Assembly (NCBI GenBank): GCA_947475245.1
Contig: CANJLW010000001.1
Coordinates: forward strand, 36,025-100,024
Length of the DNA: 64,000 nt
Source of the DNA: Acetobacteraceae bacterium
Lineage (GTDB): Bacteria > Pseudomonadota > Alphaproteobacteria > Acetobacterales > Acetobacteraceae
Direction: 5' to 3'
Numbering within the stretch: the first letter of the stretch is position 1; every line of letters starts with the position of its first letter. Positions 1,515 to 11,545 of the stretch are shown piece by piece. The notes under the pieces were generated by a model. That model worked only from the letters and a program-made list of their open reading frames with translations. It was not told the DNA's origin and searched no databases. A program made the position numbers and the translations under genes.

Positions 1515-3565
1515 GCCGCCTCCAGGATCAAATTCAAACAGGGTTCCACGCGCGCGATCATGTCGGGCAGCACGACCGTAGTGGAGTCCATCTGCTCGAC
1601 AATTGCTGGACCGGTCAGGCAATTCCCGGCGCGCAGCAAGGCCCGGTCGTAGACGGGGCAATCGACGAAGCCACCCGCTTCCGGCAGCCACACCGGACGA
1701 TGCCCGCTCCGCGCGGCGGAGGCATCGGGCCCGGCATCCGCATGCGTCGCAAAGCCGGCCTTGGGCGACAATCCCGTCGCTTCCACCCGAAACGTAACGA
1801 GTTGCACCGGCTCGTCCTCGGCCGCGAAGCCATAGCTGCGCAAATGTTCGGCGGCGAAATCCCGCGCCAGACCGGCCAATGTCTCTTCCCCGATCGGTCC
1901 GTTGGGCAACCCGATCGGCAATTCGTAGTTCTGCCCGGCGTAGCGCATGTCCACGGTGAGCTTCAGCACCCGCGCATCGTCCGCGATCCCCTCCTCGGCG
2001 AACCAGCGATCGGCGCGATCCGCCAACGCCGCGAAGACCGCTTGCGTTGTCCCCACCGCGTCCATCTCCGCCAGCGGAGTCAGCCGTGTCGCGGCGAAAT
2101 CGGCGCGCGGATCGGTCAGCAGCAGCCCCGTCGCGCAGAGAATGCCGGGATTCAGCGGCACCAGAACCCGCCCGATGTCCAACTCCCGCGCCAGACGCAC
2201 CGCGTGCAGCGGCCCCGCGCCGCCGAACGCCACCAGCGTATAGTCGCGCGGATCGTGGCCGCGCTGCACCGAAATCACCCGGATCGCCCGCGCCATGTTG
2301 GCGGTCACGACCGAAACGATCCCCTGCGCCGTCGCCATCGTCTCCATGCCCAATCGCGCCGCCAGCCGCTCGATCGCCGCCAGCGCCAGATCGCGCCGCA
2401 CCGCCATCCGCCCGCCCAGCAGATGCGTCGGATGTAACGTGCCCAGCACGACATTGGCATCCGTCACCGTCGCCTCGTCATTGCCGAGGCCGTAACAAAC
2501 CGGCCCGGGATCGGCCCCGGCGCTGCGCGGGCCGACCTTCAGCAGGCCGCCGTTGTCGATATACGCGATCGATCCGCCGCCCGCGCCCACCGTGTGGATA
2601 TCCAGCATCGGCGCCTTGATCGGATAGCCGTGCACCACGGCCTCGCTCGTCAGCCGGCACACCCCGCCCGCCATCAGCGCGACGTCGGTGGAGGTCCCGC
2701 CCATGTCGAACGTGATCAGATCGTCGAACCCCGTCACTCGCCCGATTTCCCGCGCGCCGACCACGCCGGTGGACGGCCCCGACAGCACCGTGCGCACCGG
2801 CAGGCGCGCGGCCTGATCGAAGCCGATCACCCCGCCGTTCGACTGCGTCAGATGCGGCGTCGCCGTCATCCCCAGCCCCAGCAAACGCGCCGCCAGACGT
2901 TCGATGTAGCCCTGCATCGTCGGACCGAGATAGGCGTTCACAACCGTCGTCGACATCCGCTCATACTCGCGGAACTCCGGCGCGACGCGGTGCGACACGC
3001 AGGAAAACGCCTCGGGAAATTCCTCCGCCAGGATGCGTTCGGCGGCTTCCTCGTGCGCCGACCGCACGAAGCTGTACAGGAAGCACACTGCCACCGCCTT
3101 GACCCCGGCGGCCCGCAGCGCGCGCACGGCCGATCGTAAACCGTCCTCGTCCAGCGCCGTTTCAACCGACCCATCCCGGCGCACCCGTTCGGCGACTTCC
3201 AGGCGCAGATCGCGGCTGACCAGGACGGGAGCTTTCTCGGCCTGCAGGTCATACAAATCGGGCCGCTTCTGCCGCCCGATCTCCAACAGATCGCGGAATC
3301 CGTCGGTGACGATCAGCCCCGTCTTCACCCCGCGATGCTGGATCAGCGCGTTCGTCGCCACCGTCGTGCCGTGCCCGAAATACCCGACCTCCGCCGCCGT
3401 CGCGCCCACCCGCGCCACGCCTTCTTCCACCCCGCGCGCGATCCCGATCGACGGGTCCCCCGGCGTGGACGGCACTTTCCAGACCTCCACCCGTCCCGTC
3501 GCGTCGTCGAACAGGCAGACATCGGTAAAGGTCCCACCGGAATCGACGCCAATCCGCCATGCCAT
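1511..3565 (-). CDS. Hydantoinase A / 5-oxoprolinase subunit A family protein
   Basis: ORF 1511..3637 trimmed to MAWRIGVDSGGTFTD. Motifs HGTTVATNAL, SNGG, LSGPSTG, DMGGTSTDV, VGAGGGSI, SAGADPGP and FGGAGPLH are typical of the family. Confidence 0.92.
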   Translation of the reverse strand: MAWRIGVDSGGTFTDVCLFDDATGRVEVWKVPSTPGDPSIGIARGVEEGVARVGATAAEVGYFGHGTTVATNALIQHRGVKTGLIVTDGFRDLLEIGRQKRPDLYDLQAEKAPVLVSRDLRLEVAERVRRDGSVETALDEDGLRSAVRALRAAGVKAVAVCFLYSFVRSAHEEAAERILAEEFPEAFSCVSHRVAPEFREYERMSTTVVNAYLGPTMQGYIERLAARLLGLGMTATPHLTQSNGGVIGFDQAARLPVRTVLSGPSTGVVGAREIGRVTGFDDLITFDMGGTSTDVALMAGGVCRLTSEAVVHGYPIKAPMLDIHTVGAGGGSIAYIDNGGLLKVGPRSAGADPGPVCYGLGNDEATVTDANVVLGTLHPTHLLGGRMAVRRDLALAAIERLAARLGMETMATAQGIVSVVTANMARAIRVISVQRGHDPRDYTLVAFGGAGPLHAVRLARELDIGRVLVPLNPGILCATGLLLTDPRADFAATRLTPLAEMDAVGTTQAVFAALADRADRWFAEEGIADDARVLKLTVDMRYAGQNYELPIGLPNGPIGEETLAGLARDFAAEHLRSYGFAAEDEPVQLVTFRVEATGLSPKAGFATHADAGPDASAARSGHRPVWLPEAGGFVDCPVYDRALLRAGNCLTGPAIVEQMDSTTVVLPDMIARVEPCLNLILEAA

Positions 3566-3657: not shown

Positions 3658-4974
3658 ATGTCCCCTCCCGTCGATCAGGTCCGCTCCGACACCGAACTCC
3701 CCGACCGAGTCAGTGTCGTCGTCATCGGCGGCGGCATCATCGGCGTCACCACCGCGCTGTTCCTGGCGGAGAAAGGCATCTCCGTCGCCCTGATCGAAAA
3801 AGGCCGCATCGGTGGGGAGCAGTCGAGCCGCAACTGGGGCTGGTGCCGCACCATGGGGCGCGACATCGGCGAAATCCCGATGGCGCTGGAAAGCCTGCGC
3901 CTGTGGCGCGGCATGAACGAGCGCACCGGCCGCGAAACCGGCTTTCGCCAGCCCGGCATCCTCTATCTCTGCCGGACCGAGCAGGAAGTCGCCGCCCAGG
4001 AAGCCTGGCTGGATCAGGCGCGCCAATACCAGGTCGAATCCCGCCTGCTGCGCGGCGCCGCCCTGGAAGCCGCCATGCCCGGCGCAAGCGCCAACTTCAT
4101 CGCCGGCATGCACACCCCGTCGGACGGGCGCGCCGAACCCGCCCAGGCCGCGCCCGCCATCGCCGAAGCCGCCCGCGACCGCGGCGCGCTGATCTTCACC
4201 GGCTGCGCCGCCCGCGGCCTGGATATCCACAACGGCCGCGTCGTCGGCGTCATCACCGAACGGGGCCGCATCCGCTGCGAGTCCGTCGTCCTCGCGGGCG
4301 GCGCCTGGTCACGCCTGTTCGCCGGCAACGCCGGGCTCGATCTGCCGCAGCTTAAAGTCCTCGGCTCCGTCTTTCGCACCAAGCCGCTGTCCGGCGGGCC
4401 GGAGATCACCGCCGCCGGCTCCGTCTTCGCGCTCCGCAAGCGCCTCGACGGCGGCTATTCCATCGCGCGCCGCAATGCCAACACGACCGAAATCACCCCC
4501 GACCACTTCCGCCTGCTGTCGGACTTCCTGCCCACCATGATCGCCAACTGGCGCGAAATCCGCCTGCGCGTCGGCCAACGCAGTTGGGAGGAGTTGCGCA
4601 CCGCCCGCCATTGGTCGCTGGACGAAATCACGCCGTTCGAGGCCGTGCGCATCCTCGACCCCAAACCCAACGAAACCATCCTGCGGGAGGTCCGCGCCGA
4701 ACTGTCGCGCCTGTTCCCCGTCTTCGCGAAGATGGAAGTCGCGGAATCCTGGGGCGGGCTGATGGATGTAACGCCCGACGCCGTGCCGGTGATCGACGAG
4801 GTGCGGAAAATCCCCGGCTTCTTCGTCGCCACCGGCTTTTCCGGCCACGGCTTCGGCATCGGACCCGGCGCCGGGCGGCTGATGGCCGATCTGGTCGCGG
4901 GCGACCGCCCCGTCGTCGATCCCGCCCCGTTCCGCCTGGATCGCTTCCCGCGCACGCAAAAGCCGGTTCCCTGA
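3658..4974 (+). CDS. FAD-dependent oxidoreductase, DAO / sarcosine oxidase beta-like (AgaE-like amine oxidase)
   Basis: Start at MSPPVDQ. Rossmann motif VVVIGGGIIG, EQSSRNWGWCR, and C-terminal TPDAVPVI and GFSGHGFGIGPGAG. Confidence 0.88.
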   Translation: MSPPVDQVRSDTELPDRVSVVVIGGGIIGVTTALFLAEKGISVALIEKGRIGGEQSSRNWGWCRTMGRDIGEIPMALESLRLWRGMNERTGRETGFRQPGILYLCRTEQEVAAQEAWLDQARQYQVESRLLRGAALEAAMPGASANFIAGMHTPSDGRAEPAQAAPAIAEAARDRGALIFTGCAARGLDIHNGRVVGVITERGRIRCESVVLAGGAWSRLFAGNAGLDLPQLKVLGSVFRTKPLSGGPEITAAGSVFALRKRLDGGYSIARRNANTTEITPDHFRLLSDFLPTMIANWREIRLRVGQRSWEELRTARHWSLDEITPFEAVRILDPKPNETILREVRAELSRLFPVFAKMEVAESWGGLMDVTPDAVPVIDEVRKIPGFFVATGFSGHGFGIGPGAGRLMADLVAGDRPVVDPAPFRLDRFPRTQKPVP

Positions 4975-4988
4975 TAGGACCCGCGTCG

Positions 4989-5891
4989 ATGAGCACGTCC
5001 CTGCGCCAACGCGGGATGTTCGCCTTCATCTGCTTTGTCTGGGGCACGACCTGGCTGGGCATGAAGATCGGCATCGCCGCCGTGCCGCCCGGAGTCTTCG
5101 CCGGCCTGCGGTGGACCGTCTGCGGCGTCATCCTGCTGACCCTGCTGCGCCTGCGCGGGCACCGCGTGCTGCCGCCGCCCCGTCTGCTGCCCCGGCTGGT
5201 CTTCGTGTCGGTGTTCCTGATCACGCTGAACCAGGTGATCCAACTCTACGGCCTGAAATACATCACCGCCGGCCTCGCCGCCGTCATCAGTTCCGCCCTT
5301 ACCCCCGTCGCCCTGCTCGGCTTTGCCGTGCTGCTGGGGCAGGAACGCTTTACCTGGCGACAGGTCGGCGCAATCGCGCTGGGCATCGCCGGAGTCCTGA
5401 CCCTGTTCGGCCCCGCCGCCCTGGCCGGCACGCTGGACCTGTGGGAACTGGTCGGTGCCGGCGGAGTCACCATCGGATGCCTGTGCTATTCCTTCGGATC
5501 GGTGCTGACCCGACCGATGATGCGCACCATCGCCCCGGTGCAACTGGCCGGGCTGACGGGGCTGATCGGCGGGTCGATCCTGCTGAGCGCCTCTCTGCTG
5601 CTGGAACCCGGCGGGTGGGACGCACTGCGCCTGCACTGGGGCTGGTCGGCCTGGCTGGCCTGGCTGTATTTGCTGATCCCGGGATCGCTGATCTCCACCA
5701 CCATGTATTTCCTGCTGGTGCGCGACTGGGGCGCGAGCAAGCCCGGCACCTACGCGTTCATTTCTCCGGTGATCGCGGTCATCGTCGGCTGTTCCCTGTT
5801 CGGAGAAAAACTCCACTGGCCCGACGCGCTCGGCATGGCGCTGATGCTGTCCGGCGCGGGGCTGGCGCTGCGGCGCGGCCCGCAATCTTGA
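4989..5891 (+). CDS. EamA/DMT family transporter
   Basis: ORF 4584..5891 trimmed to MSTSLRQRGMFAFICFVWGTTW. About 10 hydrophobic segments in two repeats; WGTTW and YAFISPVIAV motifs. Confidence 0.88.
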   Translation: MSTSLRQRGMFAFICFVWGTTWLGMKIGIAAVPPGVFAGLRWTVCGVILLTLLRLRGHRVLPPPRLLPRLVFVSVFLITLNQVIQLYGLKYITAGLAAVISSALTPVALLGFAVLLGQERFTWRQVGAIALGIAGVLTLFGPAALAGTLDLWELVGAGGVTIGCLCYSFGSVLTRPMMRTIAPVQLAGLTGLIGGSILLSASLLLEPGGWDALRLHWGWSAWLAWLYLLIPGSLISTTMYFLLVRDWGASKPGTYAFISPVIAVIVGCSLFGEKLHWPDALGMALMLSGAGLALRRGPQS

Positions 5892-5904
5892 TGTGAAACA
5901 GTGT

Positions 5905-6080
5905 GGGTATCTTCGCGGCATTTCACTGGCCGAGAGAGCTGATTTTTACCACAAAGGACACCGAGGACCACAAAGGATGCACAAAGGTGTCTGAGGCGGC
6001 GTAACTCTTTGTGCCTCCTCTGTGGTCCTCGGTGTCCTCTGTGGTAAAAAATGCGATCGCGCGACCGCTCGGACGTCACC
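5905..6080. repeat. 176-bp intergenic repeat, copy 1, with long imperfect inverted repeat (arms 5942-5986 and 6007-6052)
   Basis: Ungapped match to 7086-7261 at offset 1181, 26 mismatches in 176 nt by manual count. Left arm atttttaccacaaaggacaccgaggaccacaaaggatgcacaaag matches the reverse complement of the right arm with 3 substitutions. Confidence 0.92.
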
Positions 6081-6184
6081 TGCCGGTCTCCGGCTGAACG
6101 GTAACGGGAATAAATGCGCATTTGACCCGTCCGACGGGGGCGCGTAGGGCACGCGTGCCGGCGAGCAAGGGATTGGGGGACGGA

Positions 6185-7030
6185 ATGGCGGTTGAACAGA
6201 ACGATCTGCTTCGATATGCGAATATGCAGAAATCGGTCTATAATCCAGTCGGTAAGGACAATCCGGAGGAGATCGTCGGGTGGTACGGCTACCACGAGAA
6301 TGTACCGTATGAAACGAACCTGCTGTATCGCTACGGGGATATCAGGCGCCCCATCTTTCCCGATTTTCAGAAGCTGAGGGCATTCGACATCGGATGCGGC
6401 GAAGGGCGGATGATCCGCCGCATGCAGCGGATTTTCGGCCAGGTGGACGGCGCCGATATCAGCGAGGCCATGGTGGAACACGCCCGCGCGCGCAGCCCGA
6501 ACAGTGAGATTTATGTCTCCTCGGGGCTGGATGCGGGTCAGGCACCGTCGGACACGTATGATTTTGCCTATTGCACGATTTCACTTCAGCATGTCTGCGT
6601 GCACGCCACGCGGGACGCGATTCTCGACGATATCGTCCGTATTCTGAAGCCGGACGGCAAGATGACGCTGCAAATGCTATTTTCGAAGTATTACCCTTTC
6701 CACCACCCGCGGCGGATCAGGCAACTTGGCCGATGGGGCCTGCAACTGTTCAATAAGGACAGTAACAACGGCACCTGGTTTCAAAACAAAACCGACGCGC
6801 AAGGCACCAACGGGCGCTGCGACGTGGTGATCGGCACCAACGAACTGACCGCCGTCCGCGCCGATCTGCTGAAGAAATTCGGCGTTGTCGAGTTCTGGTT
6901 CTACGATATCTCCATCGATCGCGCCGGCGCGCGTTCGTTGCCGGAGAACCATCTCAACAGTCATATCGACGATCAATACTGGGGAACGCATTTCGTCTTC
7001 ATCCACTGCGCGGAACCGCGCAAGGGCTGA
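6185..7030 (+). CDS. Class I SAM-dependent methyltransferase (Methyltransf_11/25-like)
   Basis: Motif I FDIGCGEGR, motif II VDGADISEAMV, later YDFAYCTISLQH and RILKPDGK. GC is visibly lower than the flanks. Confidence 0.85.
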   Translation: MAVEQNDLLRYANMQKSVYNPVGKDNPEEIVGWYGYHENVPYETNLLYRYGDIRRPIFPDFQKLRAFDIGCGEGRMIRRMQRIFGQVDGADISEAMVEHARARSPNSEIYVSSGLDAGQAPSDTYDFAYCTISLQHVCVHATRDAILDDIVRILKPDGKMTLQMLFSKYYPFHHPRRIRQLGRWGLQLFNKDSNNGTWFQNKTDAQGTNGRCDVVIGTNELTAVRADLLKKFGVVEFWFYDISIDRAGARSLPENHLNSHIDDQYWGTHFVFIHCAEPRKG

Positions 7031-7037
7031 GTCGCGG

Positions 7038-7057
7038 TCAGGGGGCGATCCCCCTGA
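7038..7057 (+). terminator. Perfect 8-bp GC hairpin just after the methyltransferase stop (possible weak terminator)
   Basis: TCAGGGGG-CGAT-CCCCCTGA; only a short TTG tail follows. Confidence 0.45.
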
Positions 7058-7085
7058 TTGCCGTCATGATCGGTCGAGACAGTTC

Positions 7086-7261
7086 GGGTATCCTGGCGGC
7101 GTTTCAGTGGTCGAGAGGCCGGATTTTTACCACGGAGGACACGGAGAACCACAAAGGATGCACAAAGGTGCCTGAGGAGGCGTCAATCTTTGTGCCTCCT
7201 TTGTGGTCCTTTGTGTCCTTTGTGGTAAAAAATGCGGTCTCGCAACCGGTTGGACGTGACC
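7086..7261. repeat. 176-bp intergenic repeat, copy 2, with long imperfect inverted repeat (about 7123-7233)
   Basis: Direct repeat of 5905-6080 with the same hairpin architecture. Confidence 0.92.
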
Positions 7262-7381
7262 CGTGCCCCCCGTCAACGCGCCGAACGAACACCCGCACGG
7301 CATTCCCTTCCCCCCGATGCCGCCGTATGCTGCGCTTGCTGCCCAACCGACGGGGAAGGGGCAAGGGAGAACCGATCGCTC

Positions 7382-8782
7382 GTGGCGCTGAAACCGACGG
7401 GATTCTGGAGCTATTCCAGCACTGACGAGGCTGCCTCCAATGGCCGGTTAAGCCGGTTGCGGCAGCAGATCGAACGCGAGTTACAGCTACAAGTCGGTCG
7501 GCCGAAGGTTGAAATCTTCCACGATATCACCTCCATTCCGCCTGGCACGGATTGGAACGACGTGATCACGGCGGCGCTCGAAAACTCCTCCTTCTTCATT
7601 CCAATCATTACCCCCGCTTTCCTGCACAGCGAGGTTTGCGCGTGGGAGGTAAAGACGTTCCGCGACATCATGAAAAAGCGTGGTCGTCACGACCTGATAG
7701 TCCCTATCTATTATTTGGATGTGGATGCACACGGGGTCGAACGCCGCCACGAATGGCACGATCCGACGATCCTGGATTTTTTGTTGACAAAGCACTGGTT
7801 GGATTTTCGTGCGTTGCGCGTCCGGGATCCGTCGACCGAGCCGGTGACCGAGTGGGTCGCCAAGACCGGGAAGGCAATCTATGCGACGCTCTCTAAGCCA
7901 CCCTCTAAACCGTTCACGACGTCGCCCGAGCAGAATACCCAGCAAGACCATCCGACTCCGCAGCCTTCGGTGTCCGTCAAACCCGTCCGCGCCCCCGGCA
8001 CCCGCTTCCGCGACCAGCCCCACTTTCCCGAAATGGTCGTCATCTCCCCCGGTCGCTTCATCATGGGTAGCGACAAATCCGGCCCCCACGCCGAACCGGG
8101 ACACAACAGCGACGAATCCCCCGCCCACGAAGTCGGCATCGCCGCCGCTTTCGCGCTCGGCCGCCTGCCGGTCACAAGGGGCGAATACGCCGCCTTCGTC
8201 AAGGCAACCGGCTACGATGCGGGCTCGGACTGGCAAGAACCCGACTTCCCCCAGACCGACGATCACCCCGTCGTGGGCGTGTCGTGGATCGATGCGGAGG
8301 CGTTTATCGATTGGCTGAACGCAGACCTTGCCGATAAACCCTACCGCCTGCCGACGGAGGCGGAATGGGAATACGCCGCGCGAGGGCAGACCGTGCTCGG
8401 CCCCCGGACGGAATTCGCGACCGGCGCGCGGATCGAACCCAACCAGGCGCAATACCGTTGGTCCGAAAGCTACGCCGGGTCGAAAACCCGATCCAAGGGC
8501 GCGCCCGGCACGGCGGTCGCGGGCAGCTTCCCGGGCAATGCGTTCGGCCTGCGCGATATGCACGGCAACGTCTGGGAATGGACGCAGGATGCCTATCGGG
8601 ACTCCTACAACGGCGCCCCGGACGACGGCAGCGCCATGGAGTTCACCCATTTCGAGTATCGCGTCCTGCGGGGCGGGTCCTGGATCTACAAGCCAAGGGA
8701 CCTGCGTTCTGCAACCCGCATCGAGGGTAAGCCTTCCGTCCGTGCCCCCTGGCTCGGCGTTCGGGTTGCGAGGACGCTGTAA
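7382..8782 (+). CDS. TIR-domain + FGE-sulfatase (SUMF1 / C-type lectin fold) fusion protein
   Basis: Probable GTG start at 7382 after GGAGA, in frame with ORF 7232..8782. TIR N-terminus: GFWSYSSTD, IFHDITSIPPGTDW, FFIPIITPAFLHSEVCAWEV. A Pro/Gln/Thr/Ser linker follows, then FGE motifs FPEMVVISPGRFIMGS, DESPAHEV, HPVVGVSWIDA, YRLPTEAEWEYAAR, NAFGLRDMHGNVWEW and RVLRGGSW. Confidence 0.88.
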   Translation: MALKPTGFWSYSSTDEAASNGRLSRLRQQIERELQLQVGRPKVEIFHDITSIPPGTDWNDVITAALENSSFFIPIITPAFLHSEVCAWEVKTFRDIMKKRGRHDLIVPIYYLDVDAHGVERRHEWHDPTILDFLLTKHWLDFRALRVRDPSTEPVTEWVAKTGKAIYATLSKPPSKPFTTSPEQNTQQDHPTPQPSVSVKPVRAPGTRFRDQPHFPEMVVISPGRFIMGSDKSGPHAEPGHNSDESPAHEVGIAAAFALGRLPVTRGEYAAFVKATGYDAGSDWQEPDFPQTDDHPVVGVSWIDAEAFIDWLNADLADKPYRLPTEAEWEYAARGQTVLGPRTEFATGARIEPNQAQYRWSESYAGSKTRSKGAPGTAVAGSFPGNAFGLRDMHGNVWEWTQDAYRDSYNGAPDDGSAMEFTHFEYRVLRGGSWIYKPRDLRSATRIEGKPSVRAPWLGVRVARTL

Positions 8783-8839
8783 CCTCTTGATTTTTTCAAT
8801 TTTTTACCTCTTGGGGTGGTCTGGAGGGGCGCTTGCCCC
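8660..8839 (+). other. Candidate DGR variable region with downstream pyrimidine tract and GC hairpin
   Basis: The C-terminus RVLRGGSW-IYK-P-R-D-LRSA-T-R-IEGK-P-SV-R-APWL-G-V-RVARTL* fits the DGR CLec VR scaffold. It is followed by cctctt-T-rich-cctctt (8783-8812) and the hairpin GGGGC-GCTT-GCCCC (8826-8839). No template repeat or RT in the window. Confidence 0.5.
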
Positions 8840-8961
8840 GCGGCCGTGCCGCCGTTCCGGCCGGTAACGCCGAGCTTGGCGCGCGGGAAGGGTGTTTCGT
8901 ATAATCGACGGTCCTGATCCACCCCGCCCGCCCGGTCAAAGCCGGACTTTGTTTTGCCGCG

Positions 8962-9660
8962 AAAGAACCCCTTGCACCCTGAACAACACCCCGCCGCCCG
9001 GTGCCGCAAGCCGACGCTTTTCGATGCCGGGAGTGACACGGTGTCGGCGCGGCGTTTCACGAAGGCGTTGGATCGACGCGCGGCAGGCCACCCGAACCTC
9101 CGCCGGACCCGCGCGGACAAGCAATCCGACGGCAACACCCTATGCGCCGTGAGGATGCCTCCCGCGGTCCGGCAGGCTCCGCGAAACGCCCACGCAAACA
9201 ATGTCGCCCAACCCGCCCCCGCGCGGGCCGCGTCGAATGGAAATCCAACAGCAAAGACCCCATGCAACCTGAACAACGCCCCACCGCCCGGTGCCGCCCT
9301 TATGATGCACGGAGTTTCACGAAGTCATCGGATCGACGCGCGGCAGGCCACCCGAACCTCCGCCGGACCCGCGCGGAAAAGCAGTCCGACGGCAACACCC
9401 TATGCGCCGTGAGGATGCCTCCCGCGGTCCGGCAGGCTCCGCGAACCTCCCACGCAAACACTGTCGCCCAACCCGCCCCCGCCGAGGCCGCGTGGAATGG
9501 AAATCCGACGCAAAGACCCCATGCACCCTGAACAACGCCCCGCCGCCCGCCGCCGCTTACCGCGATGGCGCGGCGTTTCACAAAGGCGTCGGATCGCCCC
9601 GCCGCCATCGAGAACCGGAAATCCGGGGGAATTACCCCATACACCCTGAGCAATCCCCGC
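8962..9660. repeat. Degenerate tandem repeat: units 8962-9252, 9253-9511, partial 9512-about 9630, fourth motif about 9631-9660
   Basis: Each unit opens with a variant of aaagaccccatgcaccctgaacaac. Segments 9071-9250 and 9331-9510 differ at 11 of 180 positions (manual count). Confidence 0.9.
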
Positions 9661-9677
9661 GGGCCGAGGCGTCGGCG

Positions 9678-9995
9678 CTACTTCCCAGGCTCGACCCGCG
9701 CCACCCAGACCAGCCGACCCAGACGCGCCAGGTTCTCCGGCGTCACCTGGCGCAGGCGGATGCGGTTCACCGCCTTGTCACGCCCGGCGAAGACGCCGTA
9801 GCGGGCCAGACGTTCATTGTGGAACCGTTCCGGATTGAAATCCAGCACCACGATCACGGTGCGCGGCTCGCTCGCCCCGCGCAGGCTTGGGTCAAGCCGA
9901 TGCGCCGCCGTCGCCATGCCGACAAGGTCCTGCCCGAACAGCACCAGGGCGATCAGCAGTACGCCGATCAGCAGGCGTATGCGCGCGGCGCGCAT
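9678..9995 (-). CDS. Small hypothetical protein (105 aa) with N-terminal signal/TM segment; last gene of the ABC operon
   Basis: ATG 3 bp after the permease stop; hydrophobic stretch LLIGVLLIALVLFG; GC-rich third codon positions. Confidence 0.65.
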   Translation of the reverse strand: MRAARIRLLIGVLLIALVLFGQDLVGMATAAHRLDPSLRGASEPRTVIVVLDFNPERFHNERLARYGVFAGRDKAVNRIRLRQVTPENLARLGRLVWVARVEPGK

Positions 9996-9998
9996 GGC

Positions 9999-10784
9999 TC
10001 AGCGGCTCCGGTCCGGGGCGATCAGGCCCCAGCGCTGCACGGTGCGGCGTTCGATCGGCAGCAGCAGCCAGCGATCCATGGCCATGGCGATGGCGCCGAT
10101 GATCAGGCAGCCCGCCACGATGATGTCGGCGCGGTGATACTCCGCCCCGCTGAAGATCAACTGCCCCAGCCCGGTCGTCGCGCCCACCAGTTCCGCCGCG
10201 ATCAGCGCGCGCCAGCCGAACCCAAGGCCGGATCGGATGCCGGTCAGGATATAGGGCAGGGCGCCCGGCAGGGTGACGGATCGGATCGACTCCCACCGGC
10301 TCGCTCCCAGCGTGCGCACGCCGTATTCCAGCACTTCCGGCACCAGTTGCACGCCCAGAACGGTATTCTGGAACACGATGAAGAACACGCTGTTCCAGAT
10401 CAGGAAGATCGCCAGCGCGCTGCCGACGCCGAACCAGCCGATGACCAGCGGCAGCCAGACGATGCCGGAAATGGCGTTGAAGAACACAACCAGCGGCGTA
10501 AGGAACGCCGCGATCGGACGATGCAGCCCGGCAACGAAGCCGGCGATCGTGCCGGTAACGATGCCGCACGCCGCCCCGCCCAGCAAACGGCCCAGACTGG
10601 CCAGGATGTCGGCGCCCAGCCGGTCGCCGAGCGCGAGTTCGCCGAAGGTGGCGATAACCCCGACGACCGATGGCATGACGGACGGCGGCGGCTGCTCGAT
10701 CGCCCAGTAGATCGACCAGGCCAGCAGCAGAACGGCGGGCGGGGCGGCGGGCAGCAGCCGCCAGACGATACGGTTCACCGTCAT
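9999..10784 (-). CDS. NitT/TauT family ABC transporter permease
   Basis: True start MTVNRIVWRLL (ATGA overlap at 10781-10784) inside ORF 9999..11489. EAA-like loop YGVRTLGASRWESIRSVTLPGALP and WRALIAAEL. Confidence 0.88.
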   Translation of the reverse strand: MTVNRIVWRLLPAAPPAVLLLAWSIYWAIEQPPPSVMPSVVGVIATFGELALGDRLGADILASLGRLLGGAACGIVTGTIAGFVAGLHRPIAAFLTPLVVFFNAISGIVWLPLVIGWFGVGSALAIFLIWNSVFFIVFQNTVLGVQLVPEVLEYGVRTLGASRWESIRSVTLPGALPYILTGIRSGLGFGWRALIAAELVGATTGLGQLIFSGAEYHRADIIVAGCLIIGAIAMAMDRWLLLPIERRTVQRWGLIAPDRSR

Positions 10785-11545
10785 TGCCGCAACAGCCCCC
10801 AGCGGGCGAGCGTCATGGACTCCACCGGCTGCACCAGCAGGCGATCGACGACGATATACAGGCAGCCGATCGCGATCATGCCGACCATGATACGATCGAT
10901 CTGGTTGAAGGTGCGCGCGCCGAAGATCAGGTCGCCGAGACCGCCCTGGCGGACCAGCATTTCGGAGGCGATCAGCGCGCGCCAGCCATAGCCCATGCCC
11001 AGGCGCGTGCCGACGACGATGCTGGGCAGCGCGCCCGGCAGATAGACGTCGCGCACGATGCGCAGCCGGCCCGCGCCCAGGGATTGCAGGGCCAGGACGT
11101 AGTTCTCGGGGATCGCGCGAACGCCGACCATGGTGTTGAAGACGATCGGCACGACCAGGGTATAGATGACGATGACCAGCGTGGTGGTGTGGGTGAAGCC
11201 GAACCACAGAATGGCCAACGGCAGCCAGGCAATGCCCGATATACCCTGAAAGAAGCGCAGGAACGGCTCCAACGCGCGGGCGGCGTATCGATTGGCGCCG
11301 ACGGCAAAGCCCAGGGGAACGCCGATGCCGAACGATATCAGCGCGGCGACGCCGATCAGATACAGGCTCGACGCGGCGTATTCCGCGAGGATGCCGTGCG
11401 TGACCAGATGCACGAAGGCATCCCAGACCGCGGGCGGCGCGACCAGCATCGTGTCGGACACCTGGGCGCCGACCTTGATCGCCCACCACAGCGCGATCAG
11501 CACGATGAAGGGCAGCAGGATGCGCAGTTCGCGAAGCAGCCGCAT
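10781..11545 (-). CDS. NitT/TauT family ABC transporter permease
   Basis: LALQSLGAGRLRIVRDVYLPGALPSI, GYGWRALIASEM; multiple TM segments. Confidence 0.9.
   Translation of the reverse strand: MRLLRELRILLPFIVLIALWWAIKVGAQVSDTMLVAPPAVWDAFVHLVTHGILAEYAASSLYLIGVAALISFGIGVPLGFAVGANRYAARALEPFLRFFQGISGIAWLPLAILWFGFTHTTTLVIVIYTLVVPIVFNTMVGVRAIPENYVLALQSLGAGRLRIVRDVYLPGALPSIVVGTRLGMGYGWRALIASEMLVRQGGLGDLIFGARTFNQIDRIMVGMIAIGCLYIVVDRLLVQPVESMTLARWGLLRQ

Follow-up and report, generated by a model that had tools for sequence, protein, structure and literature searches.

ERIC, RPE and Correia elements are MITE-like (miniature inverted-repeat transposable element-like) palindromic repeats, gene-less and dispersed. 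The nearest described counterparts of the repeats reported here are the 47 "class 2 predicted global regulator binding sites" listed for G. metallireducens (Aklujkar et al. 2009, PMC2700814), which are multicopy, mostly intergenic pairs placed variably far apart on opposite strands, every site having three tandem TCTCCGTS[Y] repeats (PMC2700814). That 2009 genome paper (PMC2700814) is the only published mention found for the hairpin family, and a literature search by arm sequence returned nothing but primer coincidences. Lectin sensors diversified by diversity-generating retroelements (DGRs) and joined to TIR and other effectors have also been described (Doré et al. 2024, PMC10907252; Kaur et al. 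2020, PMC7159879), and DGR homing requires a hairpin just 3' of the variable region (PMC3240598). Here, we report a computational analysis of an interval of 3.8 kb in a 64,000-nt stretch of DNA from an Acetobacteraceae bacterium (GCA_947475245.1, contig CANJLW010000001.1, positions 36,025 to 100,024; the whole stretch is called the window, and positions are those of the window unless a contig or assembly is named), where two palindromic hairpin repeats, a methyltransferase gene, a TIR-FGE gene with a DGR-like tail and a tandem array lie between an EamA gene and an ABC-transporter operon. We read the interval, with a probability of roughly 0.75, as an accessory-DNA patch located where synteny breaks, which brings together four independent things, not one system.

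Results

The source genome is a metagenome-assembled genome (MAG; 5.23 Mb, 89 contigs, 99% complete), labelled G000, with contigs C1, C5 and so on. It was compared with a panel of 60 other species of the same genus (congeners) and with same-species assemblies (L087 to L090). All components that the original prediction had listed for the interval were recovered in place (repeats, open reading frames, domain matches and array; Table 1), and its statement that integrase and transposase are missing agrees with the annotated locus copy, where neither is among the called genes. It had gone on to propose an undescribed system in which palindromes deliver or delimit cassettes; this is contradicted by the components, which show no co-occurrence outside the locus, in this genome or in others. 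With the window locus left out, none of nine hairpin loci lies within 3 kb of an array, 38 other hairpin loci (congeners and other phyla) encode nothing related to either the methyltransferase or TIR-FGE, hairpin arms are missing from all four checked loci that hold a relative of either gene, and no other part co-occurs at 33 other array loci. Two congeners (G004 and G050) have both a DGR and hairpins, on separate contigs. This absence elsewhere favours chance co-location at a variable spot, which had been offered as the alternative.

Comparison with related genomes likewise went against a joint system: the array family was found in none of the 60 sampled congeners, the hairpin is present in 3 of the 60, and the junction of EamA and ABC-operon sides was seen in none of those sampled. 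The two sides are never adjacent there, lying on separate contigs with other neighbors, so the patch sits at a rearrangement breakpoint; an ancestral empty-site junction was sought, and for the same reason none can be drawn. The 105-aa gene at the right border is retained at the end of the ABC operon in congeners. G+C content dips to 0.53 to 0.61 over positions 5700 to 7900 (flanks, 0.65 to 0.70). In all same-species assemblies, the arrangement of the locus is identical; in L087 and L090, differences lie only within the array repeats.

The tail of the TIR-FGE gene has an informative counterpart in a related Acetobacteraceae MAG (L105, ERZ27256799 k141_1142578), where a homologue of the protein with 42% identity (P0010) is a proven DGR target. 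Positions 1 to 6600 of L105 hold an intact DGR beside a BrxC/BrxD-like gene, the gene order being BrxC/D-like, TIR, FGE, bAvd, RVT_1 and P0010. It has two targets, of which one is a TIR-FGE fusion and the other is divided into separate TIR and FGE genes. Its template repeat (129 nt, 4612-4740) is at the end of the reverse transcriptase (RT) gene, its variable regions are at 2914-3040 and 6366-6494, and the mismatches between template and variable regions fall at template adenines in 12 of 14 and 7 of 9 cases. Behind both variable regions comes ...TTACCTCTTGGGGGTTTCCAAAGGGGGCTTGCCCCCTTTGG...; the 40-codon scaffold is shared by the window gene, which has TTTTTTACCTCTTGGGGTGGTCTGGAGGGGCGCTTGCCCC behind its stop, and the downstream element also stands behind five other FGE paralogues of this genome. 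The "DGR-like tail" of the original prediction therefore holds as ancestry, through scaffold and downstream element shared with the proven target. We infer from this homology that this particular tail was formerly diversified by a DGR.

The machinery is gone from the assembly. No DGR RT was found in this genome, in which the sole RVT_1 match is the RT of a group II intron on C46 and tblastn with the L105 RT gave nothing better. There is no template repeat either: the genome holds no near-identical copy of 8400-8790, and the L105 template finds paralogue tails only. With RT and template repeat lost, the tail is left as an orphan variable region, probably frozen. Over positions 8660-8779, the window does not differ from L087 to L090, the four other assemblies extending as far as the tail, which come from several samples. 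The "hypervariable TIR receptor" of the earlier proposal is thus not borne out, and TIR-FGE is probably an orphan, fixed, former DGR target. An RT of the L105 type (67 to 82% identical) was found in about 13 of 60 congeners, with pairs of template and variable region.

Other traces of DGRs in this genome were noted. Remnants of Avd were located at C5:179984-180187 and C12:17801-18112, neither of them followed by an RT; unrelated genes come directly next, on intact contigs. The first belongs to a decayed DGR (G000:C5:179936-182407) of TIR (178 aa), FGE (521 aa) and truncated Avd (84 aa), and the second to another (G000:C12:16217-18445) of pentapeptide-FGE (485 aa) and truncated Avd (103 aa). 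A candidate DGR on C46, where an RT lies beside an FGE gene, was rejected, as the RT is that of a group II intron (YADD, maturase domain) and there is no template/variable pair. This intron (G000:C46:7741-10092, 455-aa RT) is inserted at the hairpin behind a 463-aa TIR-FGE, and the hairpin breaks off at ...CCAAAAGGGGTGCGCC.

The TIR-FGE protein matched TIR_2 (E value, 1.8e-11; about 7496-7763) and FGE-sulfatase (E value, 8e-63; about 8027-8774), and its FGE domain matched PvdO (PDB 5hha; E value, 2.7e-42) and TvpA (PDB 2y3c; E value, 1.5e-13). An SxxCxxE motif has a glutamate (E89) that does not vary among 12 homologues; read from this motif, it is the putative catalytic glutamate of a predicted NADase-type TIR. 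Catalytic FGE (human SUMF1) has two active-site cysteines in its C-terminal segment. The last 40 residues of the translated TIR-FGE contain no cysteine, and its lectin domain is therefore not a catalytic FGE. The non-catalytic FGE/C-type-lectin face would bind a ligand, as sensor, through a site that would now be fixed, and the TIR domain, which keeps the putative catalytic glutamate, would act as effector by consuming NAD+ or making a signal, in the manner of TIR defence proteins. The TIR_2 and FGE architecture is common: out of 8,000 scored candidates, 7,423 passed an E value of 1e-10, and many of those listed carry both domains. Among the matches listed, the best full-length one was 44% identical, and those relatives that carry names are MAG proteins of Acetobacteraceae and Rhodopila. 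PADLOC gave weak matches only on the TIR. The genome holds about ten FGE genes, one of which is the housekeeping EgtB; the TIR-FGE gene counts among about seven FGE paralogues.

The two hairpin elements are 186-nt direct copies with 84% identity to each other. The hairpin repeat of the original prediction is thus real; its length had been put at 176 nt, and it is palindromic nearly throughout. Within each copy is a hairpin whose 44-nt arms are 86 to 93% complementary (93% in copy 1) and consist of runs of 9- to 10-nt sub-repeats. Both copies have four such units in each arm, and the arms in the window have the sequence CCTCTGTGG-TCCTCGGTG-TCCTCTGTGG. Folded as single-stranded DNA, copy 1 reached -52.4 kcal/mol (z = -7.9 versus shuffles) and copy 2 -50.9 kcal/mol (z = -7.7). 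In congener copies, the palindrome continues outward (GGCGACAAACCGGTT...GACCGCATTTTTACCAC...) over nearly the full element length, so the 186-nt unit is a complete element and not a hairpin with a chance flank. The 108-nt hairpin core occurs at about nine loci of this genome, and two further periodic-arm variants were found (about 9 to 11 in total); solo right arms are present at C36:10550, C3:42260, C79:1589 and C20:8962. Spacers between arms range from 20 to about 130 nt among copies. As in the class 2 repeats, the family is multicopy and made of inverted pairs with at least three tandem 8- to 10-nt TCTCCGTS units and a variable spacer. Its intergenic sites have mixed neighbors, from housekeeping to toxin-antitoxin and defence-type genes: msrA, lpxB with a CobW-type GTPase, the gene of ATP synthase subunit b', pairs of toxin and antitoxin, and a TIR-STAND-TPR gene. 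No PF05635 gene, looked for as hairpin cargo, is present in this genome. An Rfam scan of positions 5000-11000 gave sub-threshold microRNA look-alikes on the hairpins only, and the array was without a match.

Beyond the genus, a 27-nt arm pattern was found in 30 stretches among genome contigs of many phyla, where about 0.02 would be expected by chance (our own calculation). Carriers include Bacteroidota, Planctomycetes, Acidobacteria, Chloroflexi, Synergistales, Kiritimatiellota, Abditibacteriaceae and Methanocella. The hairpins would have spread as selfish DNA.

Small GC stem-loops followed by T-runs face inward at both outer ends of copy 2 (7108-7128, + strand, with the stem-loop at 7108-7121; 7248-7229, - strand, with the stem-loop at 7248-7235), and copy 1 has a stem-loop and T-run at one end (6068-6047, - strand). 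These ends suggest a role as two-way transcription stops, and the elements may act as intrinsic terminators from either side.

Homologues of the methyltransferase, 50 to 71% identical and named class I S-adenosylmethionine (SAM)-dependent, were found in Rhizomicrobium, Phenylobacterium and many metagenomes. One of 65% identity stands alone beside the housekeeping genes grx, bolA and purL, and hairpin arms were not found nearby. The sole PADLOC match ("mad2") spans just the generic SAM-binding fold and was rejected. The predicted enzyme is an ordinary class I SAM enzyme of the small-molecule type, and its gene, of lower G+C content, was probably gained by transfer.

The array has a period of about 260 nt, with units 9047-9249 and 9307-9509 being 93% identical. 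A profile search of the genome (nhmmer) gave 89 unit matches at 34 loci, all intergenic and in every flank orientation. Several arrays are at contig ends (C39:33722-34663, C44:25427-26407 and C72:11494-11644); the family therefore probably breaks assembly, and the real loci are likely to exceed 34. A consensus RNA fold of 19 full units gave -10 kcal/mol over 282 columns (covariation term, -0.19), which is no structured RNA. Two assemblies, L087 and L090, have exactly one 260-nt unit fewer (window 9047-9566), which fits unequal recombination or assembly collapse.

Array units start with CGCGGAGTTTCACGGAG and, about 100 nt on, have two to four inverted CTCCGYG units at 10- to 12-nt spacing. The arm motif occurs at 8.7 per kb inside arrays and 0.33 per kb elsewhere, and this 26-fold enrichment makes the array units look like degenerate kin of the periodic-arm elements; we infer that they are degenerate relatives of hairpin-type elements. 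Second-type periodic-arm elements, built from CACGAAGTT/TCACGAAGG units and resembling the start of the array unit, lie at G000:C1:300411-300528 and G000:C18:20275-20312. More speculatively, hairpins and array might jointly be two states of one selfish element, in which mobile two-way stops gave rise to 260- to 300-nt arrays at 34 loci and favoured newly acquired or conflict genes, a combination that we regard as doubtful.

Table 1. Features between the EamA gene and the ABC-transporter operon, in window positions
Feature	Position	Strand	Remark
EamA gene stop	5891		Left border of interval
Palindromic repeat copy 1, CACGGAG-type periodic arms	5895..6080	.	Core hairpin 5943-6050
Class I SAM-dependent methyltransferase gene, 281 aa	6185..7030	+	ATG 6185, stop 7030; Methyltransf_11 E 6e-16
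Palindromic repeat copy 2	7076..7261	.	Core hairpin 7124-7231
TIR-FGE (C-type lectin fold) gene, 466 aa	7382..8782	+	Likely start GTG 7382; stop 8782
DGR-variable-region-type scaffold, forty codons (RVLRGGSW...LGVRVARTL)	8660..8779	+	Codon comparison with L105 and L140 template repeats
Conserved element 3' of variable region (TTACCTCTTGGGG ... GGGGC-GCTT-GCCCC), degenerate	8783..8850	+	Stem-loop 8826-8839
Tandem array, units of about 260 nt	8961..9656	.	Span by nhmmer
105-aa gene ending the ABC-transporter operon	9678..9995	-	Right border of patch

Discussion

On the reading of four independent things, the two hairpin copies would have come to bracket the methyltransferase gene through two insertions or a local duplication, the array would shift its unit number by unequal recombination, and the orphan TIR-FGE tail would derive from a DGR that is common in the genus and was lost in this genome.

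Several observations weigh against it. A hairpin with arms 70 nt apart lies 113 nt behind an 863-aa TIR-STAND NTPase-TPR gene (gene, C5:165-2756; gene and hairpin, G000:C5:165-3034), the periodic-arm variant of C18 is 0.7 kb behind an FGE paralogue, and the FGE locus of C5 is 1.2 kb from an array. With this locus left out, one of nine FGE genes is near a hairpin variant (P = 0.06 to 0.10), and one or two of nine are near an array (P = 0.19 or 0.05), one of these being EgtB. These P values come from a permissive random model in which repeats may be placed anywhere in the genome, so chance is understated. They allow for such repeats being weakly associated with islands of conflict genes (P about 0.05 to 0.19). 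The two hairpin copies are also mutually closest (84% versus 75 to 81% to others) and bracket exactly one gene of lower G+C content, an arrangement equally compatible with coincidence and with a composite mobile unit. The window tail differs from the template repeats sampled in congeners at many non-adenine sites, so its DGR past rests on scaffold and flank homology, not on a cognate template, and in an 89-contig MAG, an RT on unbinned DNA is possible. A specific association of FGE genes with arrays was tried as a candidate and rejected: three of ten are within 3 kb, but one is EgtB, and the C5 case has two intervening genes (P about 0.05 to 0.19 without this locus).

The methyltransferase gene, together with the 186-nt palindromes on either side of it, might form a composite mobile unit, comparable to genes mobilised between two MITEs, that inserted upstream of TIR-FGE. 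Copy 1 with its left arm and copy 2 with its right arm provide inverted repeats, 93% complementary and 1201 nt apart, and the closeness of the two copies and the lower G+C content of the enclosed gene point the same way. We nevertheless consider this unlikely: this genome has no second copy of the hairpin-methyltransferase-hairpin unit, the methyltransferase homologue checked in another genome is without flanking hairpins, no target-site duplication is recognizable at the element ends (read from the sequence), the repeat family has no known transposase, and the same-species assemblies all share the identical arrangement.

The TIR-FGE gene could still be the active target of a remote DGR, with RT and template on unassembled or unbinned DNA such as a plasmid or prophage. 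It retains scaffold and downstream element; of the eight scaffold positions at which the L105 template reads AAY, six have NNC codons in the window (ATC, GAC, ATC, GTC, GCC and CCC), as adenine mutagenesis of AAC would give; and the fragmentation of the MAG, together with the carriage of such an RT by congeners, leaves room for it. This is, however, distinctly unlikely, given that the assembly without RT or template repeat is 99% complete, that both Avd loci run straight into unrelated genes on intact contigs, that the tail is unchanged across the four other assemblies from several samples, and that the downstream stem has decayed to 5 bp versus 10 bp in paralogue C64 and in L105.

That palindromes, methyltransferase, TIR receptor and array form a joint cassette-delivery or defence module, for which only their adjacency here and the weak near-misses at C5 and C18 speak, is highly improbable, with the parts never together at the 38 other hairpin, 33 other array and four homologue loci, no array family found in the sampled congeners, and a generic SAM-binding fold as the sole PADLOC match of the methyltransferase.

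There is, then, no new cassette-delivery system at this locus, and the most defensible residual novelty is a decayed DGR with several orphan sensors, an extra genome for poorly known palindromes, and the array family. The genome offers a clean, natural example of DGR decay, in which scaffold and homing hairpin are kept by about six sensor genes of the FGE type (some fused to or paired with TIR) and RT and template are gone. With an intact DGR kept by about a fifth of congeners, it bears on the fate of a diversified sensor repertoire once the mutator is lost. The hairpins add one genome to a cross-phylum family of palindromic repeats, and the arrays suggest that this family can amplify in tandem.

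Compared with known systems, the locus shares with integron attC cassettes an imperfect palindrome on either side of a lone, promoter-less-looking gene. It differs in having no integrase among its called genes and no cassette array, in stems that are far longer (44 to 80 bp) and built from tandem units, and in the absence of attC core sites (RYYYAAC/GTTRRRY) from the hairpin arm ends, as read from the sequence. With DGR variable proteins (PMC10907252; PMC7159879; TvpA, 2y3c), the window gene shares a C-terminal FGE-type lectin with the scaffold at its very end, an N-terminal TIR effector and, in degenerate form, the downstream hairpin element; in contrast to them, its genome is without cognate template repeat, RT and intact Avd, its tail is invariant between assemblies, and its stem is degenerate. 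Like ERIC, RPE, Correia and MITE-like repeats, the hairpins are gene-less, 100 to 200 nt long, hairpin-forming, intergenic, dispersed and patchy among relatives, but their arms are internally periodic, with an arm motif kept across phyla, and neither target duplication nor parent transposase was identified for the family. The class 2 sites of G. metallireducens have the same architecture of opposite-strand pairs of tandem units, to which the window copies add a fourth unit per arm and outer arms that carry a small stem-loop and a run of T or A. The published regulatory reading of those sites is a prediction, and the spread of the arm pattern across phyla favours a mobile or selfish element over a regulator site of one species.

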